A stretch of 62,750 nt of DNA, counting the filler. It is 3 parts of 3 records of this genome, joined end to end, with 100 filler letters (N's around TTAATTAATTAA, not from the genome) between each part and the next. Parts side by side here need not be neighbours in the genome. Positions count along the whole stretch, not along the records: positions 1 to 26,899 come from SRR22947727_249; 2 more parts are not named here. One strand, 5' to 3'. How positions within the stretch are numbered: position 1 is the first letter of the stretch; every line of letters starts with the position of its first letter. The position numbers and the translations under genes are program-made. Below, piece after piece: positions 8,310 through 45,971 of this stretch. Below the pieces are notes generated by a model. The model was not told the DNA's origin, did no database searches, and was given only the letters and a program-made list of their open reading frames with translations.

Positions 8310-10205
8310 ATGTTAATAGAGATAGCCCATTTCCTTTCCATTCTTTCAACAGGATTATTTTTTATATGCTTTATCTTTTCATTCTTTTTAAACTCTAAAG
8401 ATATATTTATTATTAACCTAGTTTCTAGAATATATTCACATAGTTTTTTTATATTTTTATCCTCTTTCTTTGTATATGTCTGGTTAGCAATAAGTGATAA
8501 CTTTAGTGTTTTATATATTGCTCAACACTCCAATATTAATCTTCCAGTTTTTTATAAAATTTCATCTATTTGGAGCGCTCATGAGGGCTCAATGTTTCTT
8601 TGGATTATTTTCTTAACAACATGGGGGGCTGTATACAATTTATTCACTTCTAATGATCAACTTTTAAAGGCAAGAACGCTTGGAGTCATATCAATAACGT
8701 CTGTTGGATTTTTATTATTTTTATTATTAACATCAAATCCATTTGAAACTATCCTTCCTGTGCCTCCAGAAAATGGTGCTGATATCAATCCAGTTTTGCA
8801 AGACCCGCTTTTGGCAATTCATCCTCCCATGTTATATATGGGTTATGTTGGCTTTGTAATAGCTTTTGGACAGGCTATAGCATTTTTATTTGAAGGTAAG
8901 CCAGAAATTAAATGGGAAAAGCAAGTTAGATCCTGGTCACTTGCTTCATGGTCTTTTCTTACTCTAGGGATTGCACTGGGTAGTTGGTGGGCATATTACG
9001 AACTTGGCTGGGGAGGGTACTGGTTTTGGGACCCAGTTGAAAATGTTGCCTTGATGCCTTGGCTTGCAGCTACTGCGTTTGTTCATTCTTTAAGTGCTTC
9101 TTCAAAATCATCTATTTTAAGAATATGGACATTATTGCTATCCATTCTTGTCTTCTCTTTAAGTTTATTTGGAGCTTTCATAGTTAGATCTGGGATTATT
9201 GATAGTGTTCATTCGTTTGCAAATGATCCTGAAAGAGGATTATATCTTCTTGCATTTATCGGACTTCTTGTAATGGTTTCATTATTACTCTTCTCATTTA
9301 GATTTAATCTCCTCCTTTCAAATAAAAAGATTGCCTCTTTATCAAAAGAATCATTTATATCGCTAAATAATATCTTCTTTGGAACGTTAATCTTTTCAAC
9401 AATGCTAGGCGTCTTATACCCTTTAATATATGAATTTATATATAATCAAAAGATAAGTGTCGGAGCTCCTTTTTATAACGCAATTTTTGTACCTATAACC
9501 TTAATAGCATGTATTTTTTTATACTTTTCAATTGATTCAAAATGGCAGCAGAGCTTAAATATAAAATCGCTTTTTCAGCCCTTACTTATATCACTAACAT
9601 TTTCAGCAACGATAGTTATCCTAGCTTTTTTTCAGTTTTCAATAACTAATTTGTGGACATTAGCATCATTGCTAATAGGCTCAATAATTATCATACGATA
9701 TATGATTGTGATTTATTTTTACTTTGTATACAGAAAATTTACCAATATCTTCAGCGTTATCGCACATTGTGGCTTGGGTCTCTTAATAATATCGATAGCT
9801 TTAAATGACAATCTAAGTTCCGAAAGGGCTTTAAATATCAAAATCAATGAAACAGAAATATATAAAGATCATCAAATAACTTTAAAAAACTTGAGAATGG
9901 TTCCTGGACCAAATTTTGATTCTGTAAAAGCAGACTTTTTAATAGAAAATCCAAATGGAAAAACTTTTACCTTAACCCCAGAGAAAAGAAAATATTTTGC
10001 TCGAGGACAAGTCACTACAGAAACTGCTATTCATGCATCTTTTTTAAAAGATATTTATCTAACAATTGGTGACCAGCTTGATGACGGAAGTTGGATTGTA
10101 AATATTCAATTTAATATATTTATTAGATGGATATGGTTTTCTGCAATGATGATGGTGGTTGCAGGGTTGTTGCTTGCTCATTCTTTATCGAGATCAAGGC
10201 CATGA
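8310..10205 (+). CDS. ccmF: Cytochrome c heme lyase CcmF
   Basis: WSAHEGS, HPPMLYMGY, WAYYELGWGGYWFWDPVEN, SVHSFA. Confidence 0.97.
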   Translation: MLIEIAHFLSILSTGLFFICFIFSFFLNSKDIFIINLVSRIYSHSFFIFLSSFFVYVWLAISDNFSVLYIAQHSNINLPVFYKISSIWSAHEGSMFLWIIFLTTWGAVYNLFTSNDQLLKARTLGVISITSVGFLLFLLLTSNPFETILPVPPENGADINPVLQDPLLAIHPPMLYMGYVGFVIAFGQAIAFLFEGKPEIKWEKQVRSWSLASWSFLTLGIALGSWWAYYELGWGGYWFWDPVENVALMPWLAATAFVHSLSASSKSSILRIWTLLLSILVFSLSLFGAFIVRSGIIDSVHSFANDPERGLYLLAFIGLLVMVSLLLFSFRFNLLLSNKKIASLSKESFISLNNIFFGTLIFSTMLGVLYPLIYEFIYNQKISVGAPFYNAIFVPITLIACIFLYFSIDSKWQQSLNIKSLFQPLLISLTFSATIVILAFFQFSITNLWTLASLLIGSIIIIRYMIVIYFYFVYRKFTNIFSVIAHCGLGLLIISIALNDNLSSERALNIKINETEIYKDHQITLKNLRMVPGPNFDSVKADFLIENPNGKTFTLTPEKRKYFARGQVTTETAIHASFLKDIYLTIGDQLDDGSWIVNIQFNIFIRWIWFSAMMMVVAGLLLAHSLSRSRP

Positions 10206-10732
10206 CTATTTTTATTAGATTTATAATAATTAGCACCGCTTTAATGTTTTTTACATTTTTTTATCTATACATAAACGATGATAAATACTACCCAGGAGCG
10301 GATTTCGCTACTTCTAATATGCCGGATTTTGAGATTAAAGATTTATATTCTGAAAGAGTTTTTAGTGTTAAAGACTTAGATGGTAGCTATTTAATTAATG
10401 TTTGGGCTAGCTGGTGTATAACGTGTCGAATAGAGCATAGTTTTTTAGCTAAATTGGAATCTAACAATATACCAATTATTGGCCTTAATTATAAAGATGA
10501 AAAAGATGACGCTATAAATTGGATAACAAAGTTTGGTGACCCATATAAGTATATTATTCATGATTACAAAGGAGAGCTTGCTTTAGACCTTGGAGTAACT
10601 GGCGCGCCAGAAACATTTTTATTAAATGATGGAAAAATTATTGTTCATTATAGAGGTGAGGTGAATGACATGATTTGGAATGATGTATTCAAGCCCATTA
10701 TCATGAAGGAGAATATTTTTAATGCTAATTAA
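10202..10732 (+). CDS. ccmG: Thiol:disulfide oxidoreductase CcmG/DsbE
   Basis: NVWASWCITC and LGVTGAPETF; the likely start is the ATG at 10202, overlapping the ccmF stop. Confidence 0.92.
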   Translation: MTIFIRFIIISTALMFFTFFYLYINDDKYYPGADFATSNMPDFEIKDLYSERVFSVKDLDGSYLINVWASWCITCRIEHSFLAKLESNNIPIIGLNYKDEKDDAINWITKFGDPYKYIIHDYKGELALDLGVTGAPETFLLNDGKIIVHYRGEVNDMIWNDVFKPIIMKENIFNAN

Positions 10733-11099
10733 GATCTTTTTATTTTTCTCAATAATATTTTCTAGCTTCACTGTAGGTGAATCTCTCTATGAGTTTGATA
10801 GCATTGAAGATGAAGAAAGATTTTATACATTAATAAAAGAAATTAGGTGTCCAAAATGCACAAGCGGCTCTCTGGCCAGCTCAAATGCACCGGTTTCTGA
10901 AGATATAAAATCAAAAATAATACAGTTAATAAAAGAGGGAAAATCAGATCAAGAAATAAAAGAATTTTTATCTGACAGGTTTGGCAATCAGGTTTTATAT
11001 AACCCAGGTTTAAGCAAAGATACATACTTTCTGTGGTTTGCACCTGGTTTATTTTTAATGCTAATTCTTCTTTTTTTCTTTTTCAGAAAAAGAACATAA
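10722..11099 (+). CDS. ccmH: Cytochrome c biogenesis protein CcmH (N-terminal redox domain)
   Basis: IRCPKC..SLASSNA, RFGNQVLYNP, C-terminal TM with LWFAP. Confidence 0.92.
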   Translation: MLIKIFLFFSIIFSSFTVGESLYEFDSIEDEERFYTLIKEIRCPKCTSGSLASSNAPVSEDIKSKIIQLIKEGKSDQEIKEFLSDRFGNQVLYNPGLSKDTYFLWFAPGLFLMLILLFFFFRKRT

Positions 11100-11878
11100 T
11101 GATAATAGTTTATTTGCTAGCTTTCATTTCATTATTTCCTGTATATGCCTACTTATTGGCACCAAAAACAAAAAATAAAGGGTATATTTTTGGCATTTCA
11201 TTTTTAATTTTAATTTTTTGTTTATTTTCATTCGTTGGTAAATATTCTTTTCTTGGTTCTATAAAAGAACAAGAAATAAATAATAAAATATTTTTAATAA
11301 TCGAGCAGGATAATGAAATACCAGTGAATCTATTTAACTCATTTGATGCAATTATTGATGAAGAAAGCAAACTTTATTGGGCCCAAAGTTATATACAAAA
11401 AGCTATGTCAGAGCAGAAGCTTCAAGCAGCTGAAAGTCTTATATCTTTTTCAGAAAAATACTTCATGACATCAGATGAAAAGTTTGTTTTTTATACTTTG
11501 TACACTCAACTTAGAGATTTAAAGTTCCCTATTTTTGCAAACTCTAAATTTATTCTTAACCTTTCTCCACCTGCTGATTGTGAAAATTATAAAGGAAATA
11601 TTTCGTTGTTTATTATGAATGGCCCGAACATACCTATTGCCAGTCAAAATTTCCAGAATTCTTTCGAAGTTTCATTAGGTAATAATAATTCTTCAATTCC
11701 TGGATTTGATCTTGCTTCAGCCTACCTCAATCAAGAAGCTTTGGAGCTTAAAGCATCATTATTTTGTGTTGAAAAAAACTTGGATTATTTTTCTGAAAAT
11801 GCCTTATTATTTGATCAAAATAATCATATAAATACCTATAATATTAGGCCAAATGAATGGTTAAAAAGAGAACAATAG
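11099..11878 (+). CDS. CcmI/CycH-like membrane-anchored protein (divergent)
   Basis: Two N-terminal TM helices; SLFIMNGPNIPIAS resembles the CcmI C-terminal domain; last gene of the ccm operon with a TAATG overlap. Confidence 0.55.
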   Translation: MIIVYLLAFISLFPVYAYLLAPKTKNKGYIFGISFLILIFCLFSFVGKYSFLGSIKEQEINNKIFLIIEQDNEIPVNLFNSFDAIIDEESKLYWAQSYIQKAMSEQKLQAAESLISFSEKYFMTSDEKFVFYTLYTQLRDLKFPIFANSKFILNLSPPADCENYKGNISLFIMNGPNIPIASQNFQNSFEVSLGNNNSSIPGFDLASAYLNQEALELKASLFCVEKNLDYFSENALLFDQNNHINTYNIRPNEWLKREQ

Positions 11879-11911: not shown

Positions 11912-14899
11912 ATGCAGCTAAATCATATAAAACTATCAGGTTTTAAAAGTTTCGTAGATCCAACGAAGATATCTTTTCCGACAAATTTAGTGGGTGTGGT
12001 GGGGCCTAACGGTTGCGGCAAGTCTAATGTTATTGATGCTGTTAGATGGGTTCTTGGAGAACTATCTGCAAAAAATCTTCGTGGCGAATCTATGGTCGAC
12101 GTTATTTTTAATGGATCTGAAAATAGAAAACCATCTGGGCAATGCAGTATCGAGCTATTATTTGATAACTCAAGTGGAAAAATTGGTGGCGAATACGCTT
12201 CATTCAATGAAATTTCGATTAAAAGAGTTATGACTAGAGATGCTCAATCCACCTATTTTATTAACAGCACAAAATGTAGAAGAAAAGATGTTCAAGACAT
12301 ATTTTTAGGAACGGGACTAGGCCCAAGCTCATATGCAATTATTGAACAAGGCATGGTTAGTAAATTAGTAAGCGCCAAGCCTGAAGAGTTAAGAACCCAT
12401 ATTGAAGAGGCTGCTGGAGTTTCAAAGTATAGAGAAAGAAGAAGAGAAACTGAGAGCAGAATCAAAAAAACTAAAGAAAATTTATCTAGAGTTAAAGATA
12501 TTAAAGATGAGATTGAGAGGTTAATCAGAAGGCTCGAAAATCAAGCAAATGCTGCAGAAAAATATAATCAATTTAAAAAAGATGAAAGTCAGAAGCAAAC
12601 TGATATTGCAATACTATACTCACTTGAGGCTAAAAATAATCGAGATAAACTTCAAAAAAATCTTGATGCGTTAAATAGAGATTTAAAAATCAAGCAGGCT
12701 GAGTCAGATTCAAAACAAGCTCAAATTGATGAACATAGAACACAAAATGCTTCTGTTGTAGATGCATATGAAAATGCTCAAAAAAACTTCTATTCGATAG
12801 GTGCTGAAATAGCTAAATATGAATCGGACCTTCAAAATGTTAGCAAATTAGAAATTTCTAATACAGATGCTCTCGAAAGAGCAAAAACAAGCTATCAAGA
12901 TGCTGTTGAAAAAGAATCAAGCTTTAAGGATTTAAGCCCTAAAGAAAAAGAATTAAAGCTAGATATCGCTATTGTGAAAGCTCTTGACGCTCTTAAGCAA
13001 AAAAGCATTATTGATGTCTTAGTAGATCCCTTAGAAGAAAAAATTGCTCAAAAACAACATGAACTCGACTCAAAACAAAATATTGTAGATGCAGTTAAAG
13101 CAGACCAGACTGAGATTACTGAAGAAATTAAAATTCTTCAACAACAAAAATATTCTATTGAGGCTGATATTGCAAGACTTGAAGGGGCACTTCAGAACCT
13201 CAATAAGATAGAAGAGAACGCAAGATTAGATTTTGAGAAAGCAAGCAGTAATTATTCTGATGCATTGCAAAAAGAGGCTAATAGCGAACACTTAACTCCA
13301 AAAGAAAAAGCTATTCATTTACTTGATTCTATTACCGAACTATTAAAAGCATTTGGCTCCAAAGCAGATTCATTAAACTCCAAGGTTCATGAGTTAAAAG
13401 CACTGCTAATAAATATTCTTAAAATTGCATCAGATCAATCTAAAAATTATACAGCTGATTTTTTGAATAGAAAGAATCAGCTAGAAGACCTTATCAAAAC
13501 AACATCTGAAGATGCATTGTCTAAAAATAAAGAATTATCTGAGTTAAAAGAAAAGAATATAAAAATTAAAAATGAATTGGACTCTAGGTTGGAAAACCAG
13601 TTTAATGTTGATGAAAAAATTCGAGACTTAGATAGCAGCAAATCATTAGTATCGAATGAGCTGCGAAGTTTAGAAAAGAATATTTCTGATTACAGGCTTG
13701 AGTTAAGAACGCACGAGATTAATCTAGAAAATGCTTCCATGGTATTGGATAAAGCTGGTATAAGTTTATCTGAACTAGATTCATCTAAGTATGCAAGAGC
13801 AGATCTTGCAAGCCTAGAGAACTCACTTGATGAGATTCAAAAAAATATTGCTGAATTAGGGTCATTTAACCTAGCTTCATCGGAGGAATATTTAGAAAGA
13901 CAAAAAGAGCTTAATAATATGATTTCAGATGGCAAGGCTAAAAAACTTGAAATTCAAAAAGTTATGTCAGATCTTGTTGAAAAAAGCTCTATTGCTGAAT
14001 CAAAATTAACTGACATTAGACAAAAGCAGTCAGAATTTAATAACAGTTTAAGAGAATTAGAAAATCAAAAGTCTATTGCTGATCTAGATTTAAAAGCCAT
14101 TGGTGAGAAGGTTACCAACCTTAGACTTGAGCTTAAAACCCATGAAATAAATTTAGATAATGCTAATACTAAAATTGCAGAATCTGGAGTAAATATAGAA
14201 AATATTGATTTTTCAAAGTATGAAAATATGGATATTAATGAGTTGCAGAATAGTCTGACAGACATCCAAGCTAAAATTATTCGTCTTGGAGCAATTAACT
14301 TAGCAGCTCCTGAAGAAATTGCATCCGAATCAAAAAGAAAAGAAGAATTAGATATTCAGTATAATGACTTAACCGAGGCCCTTGAAAAGCTTACTGGAGC
14401 TATCAAAACAATTGATATAGAAACAAAGACAAGATTTCAAGATAGCTTTGATGCTATTAATAATAGAATGAAAGAGGTATTCTCAAAATTATTTGGTGGT
14501 GGTATAGCTGAGTTAGCTTTGACTGAGGATGATGCATTAAATGCTGGTGTGGTTATTATGGCAAGGCCTCCAGGTAAGAAAAATTCTTCTATTTCACAAT
14601 TATCTGGTGGTGAAAAAGCTTTAACTGCTTTAGCACTAGTTTTTGCAATATTTGAACTTAATCCTGCACCATTTTGTATATTAGATGAGGTAGATGCTCC
14701 TCTTGATGATCTAAATACGATGCGTTTTATAAACATGGTTGAAGAGATGTCAAAAACAGTCCAATTTATATTTATAACTCATAACAAAGTATCAATGGAA
14801 AAGAGTGATTATTTGATGGGTGTAACAATGCAGGAGGCCGGTGTTTCAAGAATGGTATCCGTTGATGTAAATCAAGCATTAGAATTTGCTGAGGCCTGA
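11912..14899 (+). CDS. smc: Chromosome segregation SMC ATPase (atypical: no recognisable hinge, duplicated arms)
   Basis: GFKSF, Walker A GPNGCGKSN, IIEQG, EEAAG, LGAINLAA, LSGGE, ILDEVDAPLDD, FIFITHNK; located upstream of zipA. Confidence 0.93.
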   Translation: MQLNHIKLSGFKSFVDPTKISFPTNLVGVVGPNGCGKSNVIDAVRWVLGELSAKNLRGESMVDVIFNGSENRKPSGQCSIELLFDNSSGKIGGEYASFNEISIKRVMTRDAQSTYFINSTKCRRKDVQDIFLGTGLGPSSYAIIEQGMVSKLVSAKPEELRTHIEEAAGVSKYRERRRETESRIKKTKENLSRVKDIKDEIERLIRRLENQANAAEKYNQFKKDESQKQTDIAILYSLEAKNNRDKLQKNLDALNRDLKIKQAESDSKQAQIDEHRTQNASVVDAYENAQKNFYSIGAEIAKYESDLQNVSKLEISNTDALERAKTSYQDAVEKESSFKDLSPKEKELKLDIAIVKALDALKQKSIIDVLVDPLEEKIAQKQHELDSKQNIVDAVKADQTEITEEIKILQQQKYSIEADIARLEGALQNLNKIEENARLDFEKASSNYSDALQKEANSEHLTPKEKAIHLLDSITELLKAFGSKADSLNSKVHELKALLINILKIASDQSKNYTADFLNRKNQLEDLIKTTSEDALSKNKELSELKEKNIKIKNELDSRLENQFNVDEKIRDLDSSKSLVSNELRSLEKNISDYRLELRTHEINLENASMVLDKAGISLSELDSSKYARADLASLENSLDEIQKNIAELGSFNLASSEEYLERQKELNNMISDGKAKKLEIQKVMSDLVEKSSIAESKLTDIRQKQSEFNNSLRELENQKSIADLDLKAIGEKVTNLRLELKTHEINLDNANTKIAESGVNIENIDFSKYENMDINELQNSLTDIQAKIIRLGAINLAAPEEIASESKRKEELDIQYNDLTEALEKLTGAIKTIDIETKTRFQDSFDAINNRMKEVFSKLFGGGIAELALTEDDALNAGVVIMARPPGKKNSSISQLSGGEKALTALALVFAIFELNPAPFCILDEVDAPLDDLNTMRFINMVEEMSKTVQFIFITHNKVSMEKSDYLMGVTMQEAGVSRMVSVDVNQALEFAEA
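12590..13309 (+). repeat. Tandem 120-aa (360-nt) protein-level duplication in the SMC N-terminal arm
   Basis: DIAI at 12602/12962, YSIGAEIA/YSIEADIA at 12791/13151 and SPKEK/TPKEK at 12935/13295 all show a 360-nt offset. End points are approximate. Confidence 0.85.
13457..14314 (+). repeat. Tandem 143-aa (429-nt) protein-level duplication in the SMC C-terminal arm
   Basis: DFLNRK/EYLERQ at 13457/13886, RLELRTHEINL/RLELKTHEINL at 13694/14123 and LGSFNLA/LGAINLA at 13856/14285 all show a 429-nt offset. Confidence 0.88.
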
Positions 14900-15528
14900 T
14901 GGAACAAAATATTGATATATATCTGATTGGTTTATCTGTTCTAATTTTCTTAATTATTACATTTCTATTCATAAGAAAAATTTCAAGCTCTGGAGAGCTA
15001 AAGGTAAAAATTGAACCTGTTACAGATTCTTTTGAGATCAAAGAGATAGATGAAATAGAGATAAAATCACAAAAAGCCTTTGACTTTAATGAGCATGATA
15101 TTGAATATGAAGAACAAAAACTTGTTGTCCTTAATTTAATATCTAACGATAAATCTATTTTTGATATCGACCAAATATATGGGTTTATGAAAAATTCAAA
15201 TGCTTTTCTTACTAACGGTTTTTTTGTAATTAAAGATACAAATAATAAAGAGTCATTTCGTATAGCAAATGCTTTAAATCCTGGCACTTTTGAAAATGAA
15301 ACAGAAACTTTTGCCATTCTTTTGGCAGCAGATTTGAACAACGTATCTAATCCATTGAGTTCAGTTAAAGAAATGGTAAATTTTGCTTATCAGTTCTCTG
15401 AAAAATTTTATGCAAATATATGTGATCAAGAAAGAATGCCTATAACAAAACAAATGATTTCACATATTGAATCACAAGCACAGGAAATTATGAGATTAAA
15501 ACAGCTCAGTGGTTTAGAAAATAAATAA
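14899..15528 (+). CDS. zipA: Cell division protein ZipA (compact)
   Basis: N-terminal TM anchor, acidic linker and a C-terminal FtsZ-binding-like domain (LVVLNLIS, FRIANALNPGTF); canonical position after smc. Confidence 0.75.
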   Translation: MEQNIDIYLIGLSVLIFLIITFLFIRKISSSGELKVKIEPVTDSFEIKEIDEIEIKSQKAFDFNEHDIEYEEQKLVVLNLISNDKSIFDIDQIYGFMKNSNAFLTNGFFVIKDTNNKESFRIANALNPGTFENETETFAILLAADLNNVSNPLSSVKEMVNFAYQFSEKFYANICDQERMPITKQMISHIESQAQEIMRLKQLSGLENK

Positions 15529-15546
15529 TTATGATTCTTAGTTAAA

Positions 15547-16830
15547 ATGAAACCCTGGAAAATAATTCAGAAATTAGAAAGTGACAATAGTAGGTTATTT
15601 AAAGAAGGCGTTATAGAAGATAATCTTCATGATATTGTTTTACAAGAGGGGTTATCAATGTGTTTAGATGCCTTGGTAACATTTGGGGTTAAACAAGTTC
15701 CTGAATCTAATGATGATGGAAAAGGACTTGATTGGAATAAATTTAATTCATCTGCACAGCTTTTAATAATGAGAGAGAGAACTGGCCATGCTGCTAGAGA
15801 TGAAATTTTGCATTTAATGTCTCTAGCTACTTCAGAGCAATGGAATGATTGGTATAGAAGAATTTTAATTAAGGATCTCAGATGTGGAGTAAGCCAGAAA
15901 ACAGTCAATAATGTTTCAAAAAAAATGGGATTAAAATATAGCGTACCTGTTTTCTCATGCATGTTAGCTCATGATGGCGCCAAGCATCCAAAAAAAATTC
16001 AAGGAAGATGTCTCGTTGAATATAAATATGATGGAGTTAGAGTCATAGCTATTACAAAAAACAATAGCACAACTCTTTATAGCAGGAATGGAAAAATTTT
16101 AGGTAATTTTCCTCATATAGAAGATGCATTAAATAAAAAAGAATTTAATAATTTAGTATTTGATGGAGAAGTGGTCAGTGATGACTTTCAGTCTCTTATG
16201 AAGCAGGTACATCGAAAAACTAATGCTAAAACTGATGATGCTTATCTAGCTCTATTCGACATAATTCCTTTAGAGGAATTTAATAAAGGTAAAAGTAAGC
16301 TCAATAGTCTAGAAAGAAAAGATTTGCTTGATGATCTATCAAAAAATTTCAACTCTTGTATTAAACCGGTTGAATATGTAATCTTAGATTTTGATACCGA
16401 AGATGGCCAAAAAACATTTTCAGGTATGAATAAGAAAGCCTTAGAAGAGGGTTATGAAGGCTTAATGATTAAACCAATTAACGATATATACGAATCTAAA
16501 AGAAGTCACGCTTGGCTTAAGATAAAACCTTTTATAGAAGTTACTCTAAAGGTCACTCAAATTCAAGAAGGTACTGGCAAGCATGAGGGTAAGCTTGGAG
16601 CATTTTCAGTTGAAGGAGAGGACGATGGTAAGTTTTTCTCTTTGAGTGTTGGAAGTGGTCTCACAGACGACGATAGAGAAAAATTTTGGAGCGCTAGAGA
16701 TTCTTTAATAGGCCAATTAATTGAAATCAGAGCCGATGCTATAACTCAAAGTATTGAAGGAGAGCACTTCAGCTTAAGATTCCCTCGTTTTAAAACTTTT
16801 AGAGGCTTTGAACCAGGCGAAAAAATCTAA
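15547..16830 (+). CDS. ATP-dependent DNA ligase with N-terminal DNA-binding domain
   Basis: Motif I EYKYDGVR, YSRNGK, III FDGEV, IIIa ALFDI, IV EGLMIK, V WLKIK, VI SLRFPRF. No signal peptide, Zn finger or BRCT domain. Confidence 0.93.
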   Translation: MKPWKIIQKLESDNSRLFKEGVIEDNLHDIVLQEGLSMCLDALVTFGVKQVPESNDDGKGLDWNKFNSSAQLLIMRERTGHAARDEILHLMSLATSEQWNDWYRRILIKDLRCGVSQKTVNNVSKKMGLKYSVPVFSCMLAHDGAKHPKKIQGRCLVEYKYDGVRVIAITKNNSTTLYSRNGKILGNFPHIEDALNKKEFNNLVFDGEVVSDDFQSLMKQVHRKTNAKTDDAYLALFDIIPLEEFNKGKSKLNSLERKDLLDDLSKNFNSCIKPVEYVILDFDTEDGQKTFSGMNKKALEEGYEGLMIKPINDIYESKRSHAWLKIKPFIEVTLKVTQIQEGTGKHEGKLGAFSVEGEDDGKFFSLSVGSGLTDDDREKFWSARDSLIGQLIEIRADAITQSIEGEHFSLRFPRFKTFRGFEPGEKI

Positions 16831-17441
16831 TGAGTATTAAATATTTAAAAGTTTCATTGATATTTTTGTTAGGCTTAACACTTCAATCCTGCATGGCAAC
16901 ACCTCCTAAGAATCCTGACAATATCTGTTTAATTTTTGAAGAAAAAAAGAGCTGGTATAAGGCTGTTATGAAGTCTGAAAAAAGATGGAAAATACCACCA
17001 TATGTATTAATGTCTTTTGTATATCAAGAGTCAAGCTTTCAATCAGATGCAAAGCCTGAGAGAACAAAATTACTATGGGTTATTCCATGGAAAAGAAAAT
17101 CAACTGCAGTTGGCTACTCACAAGCTCTAAATATGACCTGGAAAGATTATAAAGAAGAAACTGGAAACACTGGTGCAAATAGAAAAGATTTTAAAGATTC
17201 AGCAGATTTTATAGGTTGGTATGCAAGCAAAGGCTACTATCAAGGTTTTGATAGGCTAGATGCGCGTTCACTTTATCTCGCCTATCATGAGGGATATGGA
17301 GGCTTTAAGAAAAAAACTTATAGAAAAAAACCCTGGTTAATTAAAGTTGCAGATAGAGTCCAAACAAGATCTACGAAATATCAACAGCAATACTGGGGAT
17401 GTGCAAAAGAGCTTAAGAAGAAAAGGTTCTTTTTCTTTTAA
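16830..17441 (+). CDS. Lipoprotein with lytic-transglycosylase (SLT-like) domain
   Basis: Lipobox LQSC, YQESSF catalytic-Glu motif, GYSQAL, LYLAYHEG. Confidence 0.75.
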   Translation: MSIKYLKVSLIFLLGLTLQSCMATPPKNPDNICLIFEEKKSWYKAVMKSEKRWKIPPYVLMSFVYQESSFQSDAKPERTKLLWVIPWKRKSTAVGYSQALNMTWKDYKEETGNTGANRKDFKDSADFIGWYASKGYYQGFDRLDARSLYLAYHEGYGGFKKKTYRKKPWLIKVADRVQTRSTKYQQQYWGCAKELKKKRFFFF

Positions 17442-17442
17442 A

Positions 17443-20310
17443 TTAGATATTTTTTATATCAAAATTAAGTTTAGAAAGCTCTTCAGTAAAGTTCTCACCA
17501 GCTATAACGGATCTCTTAGAATCATTAAATAAATACTTTTCGGAAACTTTTACAAGATCTTCTAAAGTACATTCTTTTACTCTTGATCTAAAAAGCAAGC
17601 GCTCTTCTTGTGTTTTATTATCAAGCTCACTCATAAAATCACTCATTGCTTCACCGTAAGGAGATAATGGCTTATCTATACTTGAGATAACCCCTAGCAC
17701 ACCTTCTTCAAGCTGATCATTTGATATGTTTTTCAAAGACCAGGCTCTAGAATTTTTAAATTCTTCAAACGTTTCTGTACATTTTGGATCCCTATAAGAG
17801 AAAAATTTAAATACTTTATTATTTGAATCTTGAGTAGCGCCAGATCCATAAGCACCGCCTTTCTCTCTAATTGCCGAATGAAGAAAGCCATTACGCAATA
17901 CAGTTCCAAGAACAGTTAAAGCAGGAGCATCCTCATGCTTTGAATCAACTGATGGGAAAGCTTCTGCACAAAAACATACTTGCGATCCAGTAACCCAGCC
18001 AACTGAGTTATTTTGAACATCAACAAAATCTTGATCATTTAAATCAAAAGTTTCTGAATTAAATATAGTATTTAGTTTAAGGTCAGATTGATCTAATGAT
18101 GAGGCGGTAAATGAATAGTTGGGTGTTTTTGATAGCTTATTTTTAATGGAATGCAGCGAATTTAAATATATATCAAATTCATTCTTATCACTTACTAACT
18201 TAGATAATTTATTTGTATTATGTATAAATCTTAAGCCTGAAGTTAAATCATTAGTTGCTGCAATATCTGTTATTTGAGATGCAGCATTACTCATTGATAG
18301 GATATGACCATTTTGAATTACAGATTTTTCGTTATCTGCAGATATAAACTCTAGCAACTCTTTAATTCTCTTTGATTCGTTAAAATTTGAATCACTAATT
18401 GTTTTTAGCATTAAATCCTGCATTAAAAGATCATTTTTTTCTAAGCTCTTGGATGAGAGCTTTAAAGCTAATTTATATGAGTTGCCATCATCATTCGGTA
18501 AAGTAATAAAGGAAGCAGAAATGCCGCCAGTTATTGAAGATTGATATCTTTGAATATCTTCATATGAATCATGACCAAGGCCAATATCTGTTAATGTGCT
18601 TGTAAAAAGGTTTGCAACACTTAACTCATCCTGATTTAAAGCATCGCATGGAAATAACATAGAATGATAAACGATACCGTTTGTACCAGTTTTGTAAAAA
18701 TAATTAGAATTTGTATTAGTTTCTGTTATTACTGGAGATGCATAGTTTCTTGAAAGAGGGATGTCGTCTTTTGTTACCTTTGGAAGAATCTCAGGATCAT
18801 CTTGTGCATTCTGTCTGGTTTCAAGCTCGTTAGCTAGCCTTACAATATCTTCCTTTTCTTTTTGTGATAAATCCCTAGTTTTTTCAAAGACTTTTTGCTG
18901 GATTTTATCTTCATTTTTTTTATTGAATTCAGTGTCTGGTACAAGAGAGTAATTCAACCTATGCGCATTTAAAATAAGATTTTTTTCTATGAGGTTTTCA
19001 ATATAATTTTCTGATTTTAAATTTTTTTTAATAGTATCAAATGCATTGTCTAGGTCTAGAATTTCAAGAGGATTGTCATTATGTATACAAGCTGGTAAAC
19101 AATTTAACATTATTTGAAGCCCAAATGGCATGCCTGAACCTGTTATTTCTCTTTGCCTTATTTCAAGTTGATGTAAAGAGGAGTTTATTAAATCTTTTGG
19201 AACCCCATCCTTAACAAGCGATTCAAGACAGTCAATTATCAATTTTTCGACTTCAATTTGCTTATTTGCATCCACTCCTTCAAGACCAGCCGCAAAAACA
19301 AGTTCTTTTTGATCTGCCTCAAGTCCTGTAAGGGGAGATGGTGACGTGCCTAATTCTGAACCCTCTAGAGCTTTTCGAAGGGGAGACGCTGCATTATCTA
19401 AAAGTATATTAGACATTAAGTAAGTCTCCAGAAGTTCTACTGGATTATGACTCTCATTTAGAAGCCAGCTAATTACAACATGATGATTATTTTCATCCCC
19501 AGGCTGAGGGTTGTAAAAATCAGATATTGTTTTTGGTGAAGATAGTCTTTTTTCATTTCTCACTGCTACTACTTCATTAGATGGAGAGAAGCTATCTAGT
19601 ACATTAACTTTAATAAATTTTTGAATTTCTTTAGGATCTAGTTTACCGAATGTAAAAAAGGTTGCATTAGATGGGTGATAATGCTTTTTATGAAAATTAA
19701 CTAAATCTTCATGAGTAAGATCAATAATATTTTCTGGGTCTCCACCACTATTATGTTTATATGTTGATGAAGAGTACAAATGTTTTGACATACCATGCCA
19801 CAATTGACTTGTAATGGAGCTCATTGCTCCCTTCATTTCATTATATACAACACCTTTAATTTCAATCTCACTGTCAGGATTATTTTTCTCCTTGAATTCA
19901 AGTCTATGGCCTTCTTGAGCAAAATCCAAGCTATCAAGATTTGGAAAGAATGATGAATCTAAATATACCCCTAATAAATTATCAAAATCTTTTTTGTTTA
20001 GAGTTGCAAAAGGGTAAGCTGTCCAATCACTTGATGTGAAGGCATTCATAAATGTATTAAGAGATCTTCTTATCATCATAAAAAAGGGATCTCTTACAGG
20101 ATATTTCTTGGAACCACAAAGGGCAGTATGCTCAAGAATGTGAGCTACCCCAGTTGAATCTTCTGGAATTGTTCTAAAAGCAACCATAAAAACTTTTTCA
20201 TCACTATTTGTATCTAAGTGGACATGCTTGCAATTAAATTCAGATTCGTTATATATTTGAGCATTAATATCTAATAAAGGAATATACTTTTGTTCTTGAA
20301 GGTTAAACAT
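17443..20310 (-). CDS. M16C (presequence-protease/insulinase family) zinc metallopeptidase
   Basis: DSTGVAHILEHTALCGS (HxxEH), FMNAFT, KGVVYNEMKG, IREKGGAYG, FFSYRDP. Confidence 0.93.
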   Translation of the reverse strand: MFNLQEQKYIPLLDINAQIYNESEFNCKHVHLDTNSDEKVFMVAFRTIPEDSTGVAHILEHTALCGSKKYPVRDPFFMMIRRSLNTFMNAFTSSDWTAYPFATLNKKDFDNLLGVYLDSSFFPNLDSLDFAQEGHRLEFKEKNNPDSEIEIKGVVYNEMKGAMSSITSQLWHGMSKHLYSSSTYKHNSGGDPENIIDLTHEDLVNFHKKHYHPSNATFFTFGKLDPKEIQKFIKVNVLDSFSPSNEVVAVRNEKRLSSPKTISDFYNPQPGDENNHHVVISWLLNESHNPVELLETYLMSNILLDNAASPLRKALEGSELGTSPSPLTGLEADQKELVFAAGLEGVDANKQIEVEKLIIDCLESLVKDGVPKDLINSSLHQLEIRQREITGSGMPFGLQIMLNCLPACIHNDNPLEILDLDNAFDTIKKNLKSENYIENLIEKNLILNAHRLNYSLVPDTEFNKKNEDKIQQKVFEKTRDLSQKEKEDIVRLANELETRQNAQDDPEILPKVTKDDIPLSRNYASPVITETNTNSNYFYKTGTNGIVYHSMLFPCDALNQDELSVANLFTSTLTDIGLGHDSYEDIQRYQSSITGGISASFITLPNDDGNSYKLALKLSSKSLEKNDLLMQDLMLKTISDSNFNESKRIKELLEFISADNEKSVIQNGHILSMSNAASQITDIAATNDLTSGLRFIHNTNKLSKLVSDKNEFDIYLNSLHSIKNKLSKTPNYSFTASSLDQSDLKLNTIFNSETFDLNDQDFVDVQNNSVGWVTGSQVCFCAEAFPSVDSKHEDAPALTVLGTVLRNGFLHSAIREKGGAYGSGATQDSNNKVFKFFSYRDPKCTETFEEFKNSRAWSLKNISNDQLEEGVLGVISSIDKPLSPYGEAMSDFMSELDNKTQEERLLFRSRVKECTLEDLVKVSEKYLFNDSKRSVIAGENFTEELSKLNFDIKNI

Positions 20311-37915: not shown

Positions 37916-39035
37916 TCTCATTAATTCTTTTTTCACATACATCATAGGGATTCGATTTACTTTGTATTTCAGGTAAATATTTTCGAATCTCTAAAATTTG
38001 CTTATCTCTAAAACTTTGGTCATTTAAAAGAATATCAAAAGACTCTAATAAATTTTTTTTATTTAAATTTCTATTTACAACTTCTTTAATTATCATTTTA
38101 TTACTTAAAATATTAAGAATATTAGCAAATCTAATACATACTAAAAAAGAGAATATAAAGTAAGTTAAAAAATTAAGTTTATAAAAAACTATTTGAGGTA
38201 TCAATCTTTTAGAAATTTCCAATGATGCAGTTCCTGAACAAGTAACACTAATAAACACATCGTTATATAATTTCTCATTTTTTTCGTTATTAATTGAAAT
38301 AACAGTTTCCAATTTCCAATCTTTTGTAAGATGATTTAATTTATCAACTAAATGCGGCAAAGTTGGAATAAAAATTTTATAATCTGTAATATTATTTGTA
38401 AGAAGATAATCATGAATATATTCAAGATATGGAAATAGTTTGTTAATTTCATTATCTCTACTTCCAGGCAAAAAAGCTATTAAATTTTTTTTCTCATTAT
38501 TATTATTATTATTATAATCACTATCATTTATTATTGATATAGGATGTCCAATAAAAGTTGACTTAAGACCTTCCTTTTCAAAAAATTTTCTCTCAAAATT
38601 AAATAAGGTAAAAATTTCATTAAAAACTTTAGAAAACTTTTTAGCTCTTCCCCTTCTCCATGCCCAAACTGTTGGAGCTACAATTTGTATTATTTTTTGT
38701 TGATATTTATTATTTTTAATTTTTTTTGCTAATTGATAATTAAAATCAGGAGAGTCAACACAAATAACTAAGTCATAATTATTAATTAAAATTTTATTGC
38801 TAAGTCTGTTAATTATTTTAATAAATTTTGGTATAGAAAATAAAATCTCAATTAAACCTAGAGATTTAAATAAACTGATATCATAAAATTTATTAGTAAA
38901 ATATACTTCAGATGATTTTCCACAAACACCATCTATTTCGTAATTATATTTTTTTAATTTTTGACAAATATTAAAAACAATATTTTCACCAGATTGTTCA
39001 GTACAACAAATAAATATTTTTTTATTTTTATTCAA
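37896..39035 (-). CDS. lpxB: Lipid A disaccharide synthase
   Basis: [37 protein letters not shown]. Confidence 0.93.
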
Positions 39036-39846
39036 TTTTATTACAAGTAGAAATAAAAACTTTATATTGATTAGCTAAATCAACAGTCTTTTCTTTATCA
39101 ATTATTAAACAACTGTTTTTTTCTAAAAAAACACCTTCATAATTACAATCTTTAAGCAATTTAATAGTCTTTTCACCAATAGTAGGTATATCCAAAATAT
39201 TACTTTGATTATATTTAGCAAACTTTACCAATATTCCTCTATCGCCACTTTTTTTATAGTCTTTACACCTAATTATTAGATTATCTGTACCTTCAACAGC
39301 CTCTAACCCTAAAACTATTTGATTTTGTATTATCATACTTTGTCCTACGTCTATTTCACCAAAAGATTTAAAAACTGATAAAGCTTTTTCTAAATTATTT
39401 CTTGATTTTCTTGTTGGCTTTAATTTAGTTAAGTAATCACTATTAGCAAAAAGTTCCGGGCAATACTCTTTCCAATTAAAATAATCAAAACCATTATCCA
39501 TAAAATATTTTTTGATAGAGACAAGCAAACTGTTATCTCCTGTTTTATTTAATAGTAAATTTTTTGCTAGTTTAAAAGTCTGAAAATCAAAACTTAAATC
39601 TGTAATACTAGGTCTTTTAATATTTCCTGCCATAATTATATTATCTATATTTTTGGCTTTTAAAGACTCAATAATTTTCTTAGCAGATTTAAGATTAATT
39701 ACAGTTACATCTAAATCTTTATAATTTATAATATTTAAAAATTCTTCAATAACAAAGAAAAAAACTTTAAAATTTTTTTTGATTAAGTTTCTACCTATAG
39801 TAATTGGAAGCTTTCCTCCACCAGCGATAATGCCAATATTATTCAT
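39028..39846 (-). CDS. lpxI: UDP-2,3-diacylglucosamine pyrophosphatase LpxI
   Basis: GIIAGGGKLP, DVGQ, EAVEGTD, DIPTIG; located between lpxA and lpxB. Confidence 0.9.
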   Translation of the reverse strand: MNNIGIIAGGGKLPITIGRNLIKKNFKVFFFVIEEFLNIINYKDLDVTVINLKSAKKIIESLKAKNIDNIIMAGNIKRPSITDLSFDFQTFKLAKNLLLNKTGDNSLLVSIKKYFMDNGFDYFNWKEYCPELFANSDYLTKLKPTRKSRNNLEKALSVFKSFGEIDVGQSMIIQNQIVLGLEAVEGTDNLIIRCKDYKKSGDRGILVKFAKYNQSNILDIPTIGEKTIKLLKDCNYEGVFLEKNSCLIIDKEKTVDLANQYKVFISTCNKIE

Positions 39847-40624
39847 TCATAAATGTTGTAATGCCTCTTTTATTAGATTTTTTTATGAATTGTATAATAT
39901 CTTCTATTTCTAAAATATTATCATATTTTTTATCAAGATTTTGAAGATTAATTTCAATAGAATTATTTTTATTAAAAATATCATGTAAGAATGAAGATAT
40001 TAACTTAATGTTCTTATTCGGTATTTTATTTCTTTTTAAACCTATTAAATTTAGACCTTTTAAGCCAGTTCTTATACCAATATATAAACAGTAAGGTAAT
40101 ATATTTTTTTCAACACCACTCATGCCTCCAATCATTGCATTTTTACCAATTTGTACAAACTGATGCACAGCTGAATTACCTCCTATAATTGCATTTTCTT
40201 CAATTTCTACATGCCCTGCCAATGTAGCATTATTTGCTAATATTACATTGGACTCAATTTTACAATCATGAGCAATATGAGAGCCAACCATAAAAAGACA
40301 ATTATTCTTTATCACTGTTTTAAGGCCACCACCTTTTGTTCCTGGGTTGGCAGTAACGTATTCTCTAAAAGTATTATTATCACCAATTACTAAATAATTT
40401 TTTTCATTTGCGAATTTTAGGTCTTGGGGTTCAGAACCTATAGATGAAAATGGATAAAAAATATTATTTTCTCCAATTTCTGTATTGCCAAGTATTGAGA
40501 CATGAGATTTTATTTCACAATTTTTATCAATCCTTACATAGTCTCCAATATAACAAAAAGGACCTATTTTCACACTAGGGTGTATTATTGCTTTTTTTGA
40601 AACATAGGAATTATTTTTTTCCAT
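39839..40624 (-). CDS. lpxA: UDP-N-acetylglucosamine acyltransferase
   Basis: Hexapeptide repeats, PQDLKF, HIAHDC, LAGHV, AVHQF. Confidence 0.96.
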   Translation of the reverse strand: MEKNNSYVSKKAIIHPSVKIGPFCYIGDYVRIDKNCEIKSHVSILGNTEIGENNIFYPFSSIGSEPQDLKFANEKNYLVIGDNNTFREYVTANPGTKGGGLKTVIKNNCLFMVGSHIAHDCKIESNVILANNATLAGHVEIEENAIIGGNSAVHQFVQIGKNAMIGGMSGVEKNILPYCLYIGIRTGLKGLNLIGLKRNKIPNKNIKLISSFLHDIFNKNNSIEINLQNLDKKYDNILEIEDIIQFIKKSNKRGITTFMNE

Positions 40625-40679
40625 ATTTAGTTAATAAAACAAAAAATAATAATTTATATAAATATATTATTTCTATTTA

Positions 40680-41114
40680 TTACTTACCTGTAATCATAGC
40701 TGAAAATTCTGACTCTGCTACTAAATAATCATTATGATAAGCTTTGCCCATAAATTTATAAACATTTTTTAGGCTATTAATCATCTCAACATAAAATTTA
40801 ATTTTATAGTTTGGAAGTACCGGTTTTCTAAATTTAGCTTTATTTATACTCATAAATAATACTGATTGATCGTTTTTATTAATCAAATTTTCTGAAACAA
40901 CAACACCAGCAGTTTGCGCCATTGCTTCAACAATTACTACTCCAGGTACTATAGGATTATCAGGAAAATGCCCTTCAAAAAAATACTCAGTCTCAGCAAA
41001 AGTTCGAAAAGACTCACCTATTTTACCTTTATCTATGATTTTACATTCCTCGATAAAAAGAAAAGGTTTTCTATGAGGTATTAGTTTTTTTATTTCTTCA
41101 ATATTTAATATCAT
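40680..41114 (-). CDS. fabZ: 3-hydroxyacyl-ACP dehydratase
   Basis: IPHRKPFL, FFEGHFP, PGV.IVEAMAQ, KFRKPV.P. Confidence 0.96.
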   Translation of the reverse strand: MILNIEEIKKLIPHRKPFLFIEECKIIDKGKIGESFRTFAETEYFFEGHFPDNPIVPGVVIVEAMAQTAGVVVSENLINKNDQSVLFMSINKAKFRKPVLPNYKIKFYVEMINSLKNVYKFMGKAYHNDYLVAESEFSAMITGK

Positions 41115-42115
41115 CACAATTTATTTAATTTTATAGAGGAAATTTTCCATCTTTTTATATCAACTGCTGGAAAACCTGCAACAATAGAGTTATCTTTAAT
41201 ATTTTTAGTCACTCCGCTTTTGGCAGCTATTTGAACATTGTTACCAATAGTAAGATGTCCTGAAATTCCAACCTGACCTCCAATCATTACATTATTTCCT
41301 ATAGTTGTGCTGCCAGCTATTCCAGTTTGGGCAGCAATAATAGCTTCATCACCAATATAAACATTATGAGCTATTTGAACTAGATTATCTATAAAGGAAT
41401 TTTTTGAAATAATAGTTGAATCAAAAACTGCTCTATCAATTGTGGTGTTAGAACCTATATTACAATTATCACCAATTAAAACATTACCTATATGATTTAT
41501 TGTTACTTTTGATCTTGGATCAAAACCAAAACCTGTTCCCCCAATAACAGAGCCTGATTTGATTACACAATTTGCTCCTATTATACAATCTTGTAGATTA
41601 CAATTAGAATATATTATTGAATTTTTACCAATAATAACATTTGGGCCAATTTTACAATTTGATTGAATAATTACATTATCTGCTATTTTACAGTTTTCAT
41701 AAATATTTACAAAACTGTCAATCTGAACATTATTTTTTAGAGTAGCAGTATTACTAATTGATGAATATTTTGATATAATACCATTAGATTTATTTTTAGA
41801 TGAATATAAATTTGATATTATCGCAAAAGACTTATAAGTATCTTCTACTAAAATAGATGCTGTTGAAGCTGGTAAATACTTTAAATACTCCTTATTTATT
41901 AGGCAGGCTTTGGCTTTGGTTTTTGTAAGTTTATTTAATTGTGAAGTATTATTAAAAAAAGTTAAATCATACTCTTTAGCATTACTTATTGAGTTTAAAG
42001 AATTAAAAAGTTCATTATCATCTAAATTAGAGATAGGATTTAAATCATTAGAGATTAATAAATTTTTAATATCAAAGTATGTAATTTTTTTAATATTTTT
42101 CAAAATTAATCTCAA
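41114..42115 (-). CDS. lpxD: UDP-3-O-acyl-glucosamine N-acyltransferase
   Basis: GGTGFGF, IGSNTTIDR, IDNLVQIAHNV, GIAGST; start codon uncertain. Confidence 0.95.
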   Translation of the reverse strand: MRLILKNIKKITYFDIKNLLISNDLNPISNLDDNELFNSLNSISNAKEYDLTFFNNTSQLNKLTKTKAKACLINKEYLKYLPASTASILVEDTYKSFAIISNLYSSKNKSNGIISKYSSISNTATLKNNVQIDSFVNIYENCKIADNVIIQSNCKIGPNVIIGKNSIIYSNCNLQDCIIGANCVIKSGSVIGGTGFGFDPRSKVTINHIGNVLIGDNCNIGSNTTIDRAVFDSTIISKNSFIDNLVQIAHNVYIGDEAIIAAQTGIAGSTTIGNNVMIGGQVGISGHLTIGNNVQIAAKSGVTKNIKDNSIVAGFPAVDIKRWKISSIKLNKL

Positions 42116-42611
42116 TTTTTATATTATTAACTTTTTCTTCAACTAAATCAGTAATATTAATAGAGTTACTCGATAAAATATAATTATTAGAATCTAAAAT
42201 TAGATCAATTTTATTGTCATCAGAGAACTTTTTTAAAACATCAAGAATTATATTAATTATTTTATTTTTAAAATTATTTACTTGAAGTTCATAGTGTAAA
42301 TTAAATTTTTCAATTTTATTATTAAAGTTATTAAGTTTTTGGTTGTAAATTTCTACTTCATTTTCAAATTCTTCAGGCTCAAGAATTAACTTCAATTCTT
42401 CTATTTTTTGTAGTTCTTTTTGAAAATTTAGTTCTTCTTTTGTAAATATAGCTGTGTGAGTTTGTTGATCTTTATTAATAAGATCATATAGTGAGACAAG
42501 GCTTGTATTATTTTGAATTATTTTCTGAAAATCTAATACTCGTATATTTGTTGAAAAAGCACTAGTACTAAAAGTGATAATTATAAAACTTAAAAATATT
42601 GTTATTCTCAA
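42090..42611 (-). CDS. skp: OmpH/Skp periplasmic chaperone
   Basis: Signal peptide, IRVLDFQKI, coiled coil, IDLILD...INIT; located between bamA and lpxD. Confidence 0.75.
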   Translation of the reverse strand: MRITIFLSFIIITFSTSAFSTNIRVLDFQKIIQNNTSLVSLYDLINKDQQTHTAIFTKEELNFQKELQKIEELKLILEPEEFENEVEIYNQKLNNFNNKIEKFNLHYELQVNNFKNKIINIILDVLKKFSDDNKIDLILDSNNYILSSNSINITDLVEEKVNNIKIEINFEKY

Positions 42612-45968: not shown

Positions 45969-45971
45969 AAA

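Follow-up and report, generated by a model that had tools for sequence, protein, structure and literature searches.

Results

Organization of the ligase locus

The window, that is, the whole 62,750-nucleotide (nt) stretch of DNA analysed here, comes from a SAR86 gammaproteobacterium and consists of three joined parts, the first of which (positions 1 to 26,899; record SRR22947727_249) carries an ATP-dependent DNA ligase gene at the place where other SAR86 genomes carry ligA, the gene for the NAD-dependent ligase. SAR86 is a heterotrophic gammaproteobacterial clade and one of the most abundant in surface seawater. Open reading frame (ORF) calls in the window revealed four tightly packed genes on the plus strand: smc (11912..14899, 995 amino acids (aa)), zipA (14899..15528, 209 aa), the ligase gene (15547..16830, 427 aa) and an SLT_4 transglycosylase-like gene (16830..17441, 203 aa). 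The stop codon of smc shares 1 nt with the start codon of zipA (TGATG), and that of the ligase gene shares 1 nt with the start codon of SLT_4 (TAATG); zipA is separated from the ligase gene by an AT-rich plus-strand spacer of 18 nt (15529..15546), whose sequence was read directly and contained no ligA remnant. The short spacer and the overlaps leave no room for such a remnant, and a tblastn search of the whole window with 12 SAR86 LigA proteins gave a best E-value of 0.8. An earlier reading of this DNA, made from the sequence only (the sequence-only reading), had described a 427-aa ligase located 18 nt past zipA with no visible ligA remnant, and both observations were reproduced. The span that it had assigned to the ligase, 14899..16830, ends correctly at the ligase stop but starts with zipA; the ligase gene itself begins at 15547.

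The products of the surrounding genes were identified by family models. SMC, encoded by the first gene of the smc-zipA-ligase-SLT_4 run, matched PF02463 (175.7 bits) and TIGR02168 (852.8 bits against a cut-off of 567). ZipA matched the ZipA_C family PF04354 (51.9 bits against a cut-off of 23) and the SLT_4 protein matched PF19489 (242.7 bits); their genes were used as the upstream and downstream markers of the slot, respectively. On the minus strand, a convergent gene (17443..20310) encodes a 955-aa M16-family PreP-like peptidase with matches to PF08367, PF05193 and PF22516; it forms a conserved flank and was included in the host tree. The upstream ORFs at 8310-11878 look, from their translations, like cytochrome-c maturation (ccm) genes. 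The guanine-plus-cytosine (GC) content of the ligase gene resembles that of its neighbours (0.30-0.33, in a window of approximately 30% GC), and no phage genes adjoin the ligase among the ORFs and Pfam matches of the window.

The ligA slot in SAR86 relatives

The nearest genome, that of Gamma proteobacterium SCGC AAA168-P09 (G001; 94% complete, 50 contigs), has an identical locus with a 100% identical ligase. The other 25 ATP-ligase loci found are labelled as SAR86 cluster bacteria or as unclassified gammaproteobacterial or proteobacterial metagenome-assembled genomes (MAGs). The genomes of these SAR86 relatives range in size from 0.9 to 1.8 Mb.

The slot was compared with that of 14 LigA-bearing SAR86 loci (L043-L054, L155 and L156). 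Each of these holds, between zipA and SLT_4, a LigA frame that measures 676-740 aa from stop to stop; in L054, where zipA was not detected, smc served as the upstream marker. At a 15th LigA locus, that of G031, the 3' end of LigA stands at the contig start and is followed by SLT_4. The gene order common to the LigA loci is ccm-like genes, smc, zipA, the slot gene, SLT_4 and PreP. The ATP-dependent ligase fills the same zipA-SLT_4 slot in 30 of the 30 ATP-ligase loci, window included, one of which (G036) lies on a contig that stops 115 codons into the ligase, right after zipA. Across the 42 loci compared, zipA was present upstream of the slot in 41, L054 being the exception, and SLT_4 was found downstream in every locus reaching that far. 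These comparisons confirmed the proposal that the ligase occupies the slot of ligA.

We also compared two loci that are sisters in the flank tree described below, L034 with the ATP-dependent ligase and L047 with the NAD-dependent one. Their DNA is approximately 75-85% identical across smc and zipA, but this identity is lost where zipA ends and is regained approximately 70 nt into SLT_4. These breakpoints mark a clean gene-for-gene swap.

The locus might also be a chimeric assembly or the insertion of a prophage or island, a view in line with the abundance of this ligase family on viral contigs (assigned to phrog_114, and confirmed in 577 of 600 candidate IMG/VR stretches). However, the identical arrangement was found in 30 independent assemblies, which include single-amplified genomes (SAGs), MAGs and single-contig genomes, and the ligase gene shares the GC content of its neighbours, overlaps with adjacent start and stop codons and has no phage genes next to it. 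We give this explanation practically no weight.

Distribution of LigA and the ATP-dependent ligase

The order-wide set comprised 103 SAR86-order genomes with a completeness of at least 85%. LigA was present in 75 of these genomes and the ATP-dependent ligase in 23, while none contained both and five contained neither; the two enzymes were thus mutually exclusive in all 98 genomes that have either. Accordingly, the LigA adenylation domain PF01653 was detected in 0 of the 23 ATP-ligase genomes, in contrast to 75 of the 80 others. Within family f1, to which the window belongs and which accounts for 37 of 61 relatives, 25 genomes had the ATP-dependent ligase only, 10 had LigA only, one (G006) had both and one (G013, 75% complete) had neither. 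Families f2-f4 showed LigA in 24 of 24 genomes and the ATP-dependent ligase in 0 of 24.

The full-length LigA model TIGR00575 scored above its cut-off in none of the five genomes searched (G001, G029 and the single-contig genomes G019, G026 and G032); the best score there was 30 bits against a cut-off of 444, and came from the helix-hairpin-helix (HhH) regions of roughly 600-aa frames. The sequence-only reading had named a full-length ligA elsewhere in the same genomes as the result that would overturn it, and the search for one was negative in G001 and in the three single-contig relatives. Exactly one PF01068 match per genome was found in all 25 relatives having any, including the three single-contig genomes.

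The apparent LigA of G006 is a 188-codon N-terminal NAD-ligase-like frame (L055:9928-10491, contig C125) that is cut by the contig end. This frame is approximately 30% identical to SAR86 LigA and approximately 42% identical to the phage protein annotated as NAD-dependent DNA ligase subunit A, which occurs for example in Erwinia phage KEY and Salmonella phage Sw2, and its contig lacks synteny to the slot. Because it is a contig-end fragment without slot synteny and is nearer to the phage subunit A, the frame, judged from these sequence comparisons, is not a host ligA, and the contig that brought it into the bin is probably of phage origin.

The genomes might instead possess a LigA that was missed, either unassembled or too divergent, with the ATP-dependent ligase acting as an accessory enzyme. 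In line with this view, many of the genomes are incomplete, the source genome itself was outside the LigA search, and the five genomes with neither ligase indicate that genes can be missed. However, LigA's own slot is taken by the ATP-dependent ligase in every ATP-ligase locus, PF01653 separates the two groups of genomes as described above, and the same search detected LigA in 11 of 14 control genomes. In the three single-contig genomes, which lack LigA under both PF01653 and TIGR00575, an overlooked LigA is refuted unless these genomes are not closed. We therefore regard it as very improbable.

Domain architecture and class of the ligase

The 427-aa protein was found to be an ATP-dependent DNA ligase of the Pmar-Lig (AD-Lig P) type. 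Its nucleotidyltransferase (adenylation) domain, residues 148-327 (15988..16527), matched PF01068 with 81.3 bits against a cut-off of 26.2, and its C-terminal OB-fold domain of the OB_2 type, residues 341-419 (16567..16803), matched PF14743 with 43.9 bits against a cut-off of 28. The N-terminal helical DNA-binding domain, approximately residues 1-135 (15547..15951, with an approximate boundary), corresponds to no Pfam family and was recognized by alignment to the N-terminal part of Pmar-Lig. As evident from the comparison with the solved Pmar-Lig chains 6RAU, 6RAS, 6RAR and 6RCE (E-value of 1.3e-133, 449 bits), the similarity extends over the full length of the protein, with residues 5-427 aligning to residues 10-442 of the 6RAU chain and the N-terminal domain included. 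The PHROGs assignment was phrog_114, 'ATP-dependent DNA ligase', with an E-value of 5e-88.

In an alignment of 18 family sequences, residues K160, D162, G163, R165, D206, G207, E208 and F237 were invariant, as were E304, G305, K309, K325, K327, R411 and R419. Fifteen catalytic positions, G207 not among them, were also invariant in 28 of 28 SAR86 ligase copies, with one ambiguous X. We take these residues to represent the motif I lysine (K160 of KxDGxR, codon 16024-16026) and motifs III, IIIa, IV, V and VI, the last of which (R411 and R419) lies in the OB-fold domain. The claims that all core motifs are present and that an N-terminal helical DNA-binding domain precedes them were thus upheld.

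Other ligase classes fitted the protein poorly. PF01653 gave no match in the ligase protein or in the window. Scores under the respective cut-offs were obtained with the models of LigD and non-homologous end joining (TIGR02779, 92.4 against 227.75; TIGR02776, 81.2 against 373.2), with the LigE-like model PRK09125 (71.8 against 200) and with the LigB-type models (TIGR04120, 53.2 against 400; PRK09247, 57.9 against 543), and the OB domain belongs to PF14743 and not to the LigB-type PF04679. The Ku family PF02735 was detected in 0 of 5 near-complete relatives. The N-terminus (MKPWKIIQKLESDNSR...) showed no hydrophobic signal-like stretch when read from the sequence without a predictor. On all three points, namely no signal peptide (unlike LigE), no Ku and no LigD context, our results agreed with what had been proposed. 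A clamp-binding-like motif, searched for with a simple pattern, occurred only in the window copy (QLLIM, residue 71) and in 0 of 6 other SAR86 ligases, and is not conserved.

Selection and expression

The ratio of non-synonymous to synonymous substitution rates (dN/dS) of the SAR86 ligases was 0.03-0.10 in 10 pairs, an 11th pair being saturated at synonymous sites; the corresponding values were 0.03-0.08 for smc, 0.06-0.09 for PreP and 0.01-0.29 for zipA. The ligase is under strong purifying selection, comparable to that on smc. In four RNA libraries, which come from three studies, assembled contigs match the ligase with at least 95% identity and bridge both junctions; for example, one contig of 1,153 nt spans 15446-16598 and another of 1,869 nt runs from 15778 past 17400. 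These contigs are consistent with expression of the ligase, although assembled RNA-library contigs can neither exclude DNA carry-over nor prove a transcript. Some bins had no cover in some RNA runs, and such gaps carry no meaning.

The selection data bear on the view that the ATP-dependent ligase is a repair or phage-derived accessory enzyme and that Okazaki fragments are joined by another, unrecognised one. According to passages of a 2020 review (PMC7470946), the ATP-dependent ligases of bacteria are generally accessory repair enzymes. Such a role would also fit the simple-pattern result that the seven SAR86 ligases share no conserved beta-clamp-binding-like motif. However, no other ligase family member was found, with one PF01068 match per genome and no PF01653. 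Moreover, Ku was not found in the five relatives, the LigD, LigE and LigB-type models scored far under their cut-offs, purifying selection on the ligase is as strong as on smc, and the gene inherited the operon position of ligA. A purely accessory ligase is, in our judgement, hardly credible.

Putative viral relatives of the SAR86 ligases

The SAR86 ligases formed a single clade with a Shimodaira-Hasegawa-like approximate likelihood ratio test (SH-aLRT) support of 100 in both ligase trees, comprising 29 rows in the first and 16 rows in the second, which argues for a single entry into SAR86. In the second, a tree of 112 rows, the SAR86 clade falls inside a larger one with a support of 99 that also holds 20 IMG/VR rows and the metagenomic sequence P0122. 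The nearest relatives outside SAR86 lie on IMG/VR contigs and are 57-65% identical, while the ligases of cultured phages are 28-37% identical. The sequence-only reading had called the enzyme a phage-type ligase and named T4-like phages for comparison; the virus-type assignment stood, and the T4-like label proved too specific, as cultured phages reach only about 37% and the nearest relatives occur on uncultivated viral contigs.

The flanks of the sister IMG/VR contigs are rich in ORFans and contain genes for a GIY-YIG nuclease, a MoxR-like ATPase with DUF2201, a sulfotransferase and SHMT. The five best IMG/VR records (L072-L077, G515-G519) were estimated by CheckV to be 7-25% complete, and simple scaling points to genomes of around 350 kb. 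A family-B polymerase (PolB) was present in one of these records. None of the five fragments matched the terminase PF03237, the nucleocytoplasmic large DNA virus (NCLDV) capsid PF04451 or the T4 gp23 family PF07068, and both capsid families matched no control genome either. From these relationships, a viral donor of the SAR86 ligase is likely.

With regard to Prochlorococcus, the scores to the Pmar-Lig chain 6RAU were 714 bits for L109, 449 for the window, 427 for L074, 452 for L099 and 494 for P0121. A 35-row group around L109 falls in the other main clade, outside the 99-supported clade of SAR86. This group is the Prochlorococcus type and may be Prochlorococcus chromosomal DNA; L109 served as a stand-in for the Prochlorococcus branch, the Pmar-Lig sequence itself being outside the tree. 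Judging from this placement, the SAR86 and Prochlorococcus ligases appear to be members of the same family that were captured separately. On L109, a 69-kb IMG/VR contig, the Pmar-Lig-like ligase (L109:3001-4317) adjoins a NifU-like gene, and the L109 group illustrates that IMG/VR labels need care for this ligase family.

Outside SAR86 family f1, the ligase was not found in the samples searched. Among the 400 genomes scored in an evenly drawn sample of Gammaproteobacteria, two had a match with an E-value of at most 1e-20, and both belong to SAR86 family f1; one further genome was unscored. A phylum sample yielded 1 of 401, which was G001 itself; the samples are small fractions, and cyanobacteria lay outside their scope.

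Spread of the ligase within SAR86

A flank tree was built from the PreP, SLT_4, ZipA and SMC proteins (42 rows, with f2-f4 as outgroup). This tree requires at least four changes of ligase type, and 0 of 500 label shuffles gave a number that low. In an approximately unbiased (AU) test, a single clade of the 28 ATP-ligase rows belonging to the main group was rejected (p 0.0115). Three GTDB genera contain both ligase states: g1, with 21 ATP-ligase genomes and three with a full LigA, in addition to G006 and G013; g6, with the ATP-dependent ligase in G037 and LigA in G030; and g8, with the ATP-dependent ligase in G032 and LigA in G092, G093 and G094.

The difference between ligase identity and flank identity was mostly 2-6 points (range -1.5 to 9). 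Much larger excesses were found for G037 against subgroup g1c (22.5 points) and for G032 against other groups (16-19 points). Between G037 and g1c, DNA identity is approximately 60% in zipA, reaches approximately 78-91% over the length of the ligase and drops back in SLT_4 and PreP. On these sequence patterns, G037 and G032 look like cases in which only the ligase was transferred between SAR86 lineages, into the same slot.

A 12-row tree of LigA agreed with that of the flanks, as did the identities of LigA with those of the flanks. In particular, the nested LigA clade of G005, G014 and G023 shows 62-65% identity to other SAR86 LigAs compared with 65-68% in the flanks, and no unusually close donor was present among the nine other f1 LigAs. 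This congruence gives no sign that the three genomes regained ligA. It is relevant to an alternative history in which the ATP-dependent ligase became fixed a single time, in the common ancestor of g1, g5 and g2, after which G005, G014 and G023 re-acquired ligA, making one gain, one reversal and two transfers. Such a history accords with the flank tree, in which counts of at least four changes cannot separate gain from loss, and with g1, g5 and G026, where ligase identity mostly tracks the flanks (+2 to +6, and +9 for G026 against g5), as in vertical descent. The LigA data described above speak against the re-acquisition that it requires, and we consider this history unlikely, though far from negligible.

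SMC length and other correlates

The SAR86 SMC protein is short, with 995 aa in the window and approximately 735 aa in other genera, compared with 1181 positions in TIGR02168 (observed in the window, L028-L034, L048, L049, L051 and L064-L067). The SMC hinge family was not found in the middle of the protein even at E-values up to 10. The tblastn pieces of SMC overlap, which suggests internal coiled-coil repeats. Both length types (approximately 995 and 735 aa) were found with both ligase types. A link between SMC and the ligase swap was rejected because SMC length does not follow ligase type, and the suggestion that the odd SMC and the ligase together form a remodelled replication and segregation module was abandoned for the same reason; the short SMC without a detectable hinge is a wider SAR86 trait independent of the ligase.

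Recycling of nicotinamide mononucleotide (NMN) was considered as a second correlate. The NMN deamidase family PF02464 (PncC/CinA, E-value of approximately 1e-50) was clear in 16 of 16 genomes of f2 and f3 (among G001-G061), and gave weak matches or none in f1 and f4, whatever the ligase type. It was rejected because it does not covary with ligase type.

Elsewhere in the window, positions 38001-47000 have a very low GC content (0.19-0.28, compared with approximately 0.30-0.35 elsewhere) and contain a change in the sign of the GC skew.

Discussion

We conclude with good confidence that the ligase of the window is an in-situ replacement of ligA and the only DNA ligase gene of the genome. The slot shared by the 14 LigA loci, the mutual exclusion in 98 of 98 genomes and the match to the Pmar-Lig family all support the non-orthologous replacement that the sequence-only reading had suggested. 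In the explanation that we favour, an ancestral ligA, located between zipA and SLT_4 throughout the SAR86 order, would have been replaced gene for gene by the 427-aa ATP-dependent ligase. The ligase would have reached SAR86 in a single event, with a marine virus as the probable source and separately from the Prochlorococcus capture. Later it would have spread through one family of SAR86, in part by recombination of gene-sized tracts into the corresponding slot of other lineages.

The proposed reaction follows that of the solved homologue. K160 would be adenylated by ATP, the AMP would be passed to the 5' phosphate at the nick, and attack by the 3' OH would seal the nick, with the N-terminal helical, adenylation and OB domains jointly encircling the duplex. 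We infer ATP as the cofactor because the homologous Pmar-Lig (AD-Lig P) was assayed with ATP (bioRxiv 10.1101/2020.05.11.089284). Expressed from the inherited smc-zipA-ligase-SLT_4 operon context, the enzyme would most likely seal Okazaki fragments and complete repair; a replicative role is probable because no other ligase gene was found.

Besides the limit on the RNA-library contigs given above, several points weigh against this interpretation. Most of the genomes compared are MAGs or SAGs with an estimated completeness of 56-97%, and the absence of LigA was established for G001 and relatives rather than for the source genome itself. In G029 (96% complete, two contigs), LigA was not found and the ligase frame is broken, being split by a 1-nt deletion in a T run relative to L029 (L066 approximately 7085; G029:C1 approximately 877085). 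This break is likely a homopolymer or assembly error; if real, it would leave a genome without any intact ligase. ATP use and the replicative role would follow from homology together with the lack of an alternative enzyme. The viral label of the sister contigs is based on how IMG/VR classifies them, on flanks rich in ORFans, on a homing endonuclease and on a single PolB, and at least one IMG/VR contig, L109, is probably Prochlorococcus DNA, so the IMG/VR label is unsafe. The group examined in the AU test was named after the tree had been seen, and the trees came from a quick search under LG+G4. Finally, the nested LigA clade implies either several gains of the ATP-dependent ligase or a long-lived two-allele polymorphism.

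The closest known parallel is that of high-light Prochlorococcus, where AD-Lig P lies in the position of the full-length NAD-ligase, an intact NAD-ligase is missing, and the mobile regions carry truncated NAD-ligases (Hjerde et al., bioRxiv 10.1101/2020.05.11.089284). AD-Lig P is a more active ATP-dependent nick sealer there, and this group was the first reported exception to the NAD-ligase rule (bioRxiv 10.1101/2020.05.11.089284). The structures 6RCE and 6RAU are those of Prochlorococcus marinus Pmar-Lig, according to passages of PMC7470946. As described in parts of PMC6698739, Pmar-Lig's three domains encircle nicked DNA, the N-terminal one being DNA-binding, the protein is similar to T4 ligase, and the enzyme is active on nicks and cohesive ends and not on blunt ends.

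The parallel with Prochlorococcus drawn by the sequence-only reading was well founded. The SAR86 ligase belongs to the same family as AD-Lig P/Pmar-Lig (PDB 6RAR, 6RAS, 6RAU and 6RCE) and shares its three-domain architecture, and in both lineages, which are small-genome surface-ocean bacteria, an ATP-dependent ligase takes the position of the NAD-ligase of relatives while an intact LigA is missing. The phage-type NAD-ligase fragment of G006 is also reminiscent of the truncated NAD-ligases of Prochlorococcus. The two cases are similar but not identical. SAR86 belongs to the Gammaproteobacteria and thus to a different phylum, and its slot lies between zipA and SLT_4, whereas that of Prochlorococcus is downstream of recA (bioRxiv 10.1101/2020.05.11.089284). 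The family branch differs, as the Prochlorococcus type lies outside the 99-supported clade of SAR86, and SAR86 has a single ATP-dependent ligase, in contrast to two or three in high-light Prochlorococcus (bioRxiv 10.1101/2020.05.11.089284). Unlike in Prochlorococcus, both ligase states alternate within SAR86 genera, with signs of transfer between lineages. The SAR86 enzyme is known from its sequence, whereas Prochlorococcus AD-Lig P was assayed.

Compared with bacterial LigA, which occupies the same slot and operon context in other SAR86 genomes, the SAR86 ligase would perform the same nick-sealing job in replication and repair. It differs in lacking PF01653, in its length (427 aa compared with approximately 660-740 aa) and in the predicted use of ATP instead of NAD+, and none of its four matched Pfam families is a Zn-finger, HhH or BRCT family. 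Phages and uncultivated marine viruses encode ATP-dependent ligases of the same family (phrog_114; enzymes of the T4 and SPO1 types, which have an N-terminal DNA-binding domain), whereas the SAR86 gene is chromosomal, lies in a housekeeping operon, is vertically kept and is under purifying selection. The LigB-type, LigC, LigD (with Ku) and LigE enzymes share the nucleotidyltransferase core with the SAR86 ligase, as reflected in weak matches. Unlike the SAR86 enzyme with its N-terminal DNA-binding domain of approximately 135 aa, LigE and LigC lack such a domain (passages of PMC7470946). In contrast to LigD and LigE, the SAR86 ligase has neither a Ku partner nor a signal-like N-terminus.

Passages of the 2020 review, written by the group that also authored the Prochlorococcus preprint, state that no bacterium was then known to lack an NAD-dependent ligase or to depend on an ATP-dependent one, and a cluster in them may include SAR86 single-cell genomes (PMC7470946). 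No published report of the SAR86 ligA replacement was found in the literature searched, and the sections at hand of a 2025 review and a 2026 preprint do not mention the SAR86 case. Per this literature, SAR86 appears to be the second lineage of bacteria to show such a replacement, and the first that is proteobacterial and heterotrophic. The kind of replacement was already known; what is new is that closely related genomes alternate between two ligase types at a single slot.

A second independent capture turns a curiosity into a pattern, in which two unrelated small-genome lineages of the surface ocean converge. Annotation, essential-gene sets and marker sets that assume a universal bacterial ligA are affected. 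LigA has been proposed as a broad antibacterial target, and the SAR86 finding bears on such proposals. Close SAR86 genomes with either ligase in the same slot offer a comparison for the cost and benefit of cofactor choice. More tentatively, and as a possibility that we find somewhat doubtful, the slot may be a two-allele cassette that moves by gene-sized homologous recombination, with the ATP allele repeatedly gaining; together with Prochlorococcus, this would suggest that the sunlit, nutrient-poor ocean selects for replication free of NAD+ or for a smaller, faster ligase. If this is true, SAR86 sisters that differ essentially in ligase type only (G030 and G037, and those within g8 and g1) would be natural experiments on the use of NAD+ in bacterial replication.

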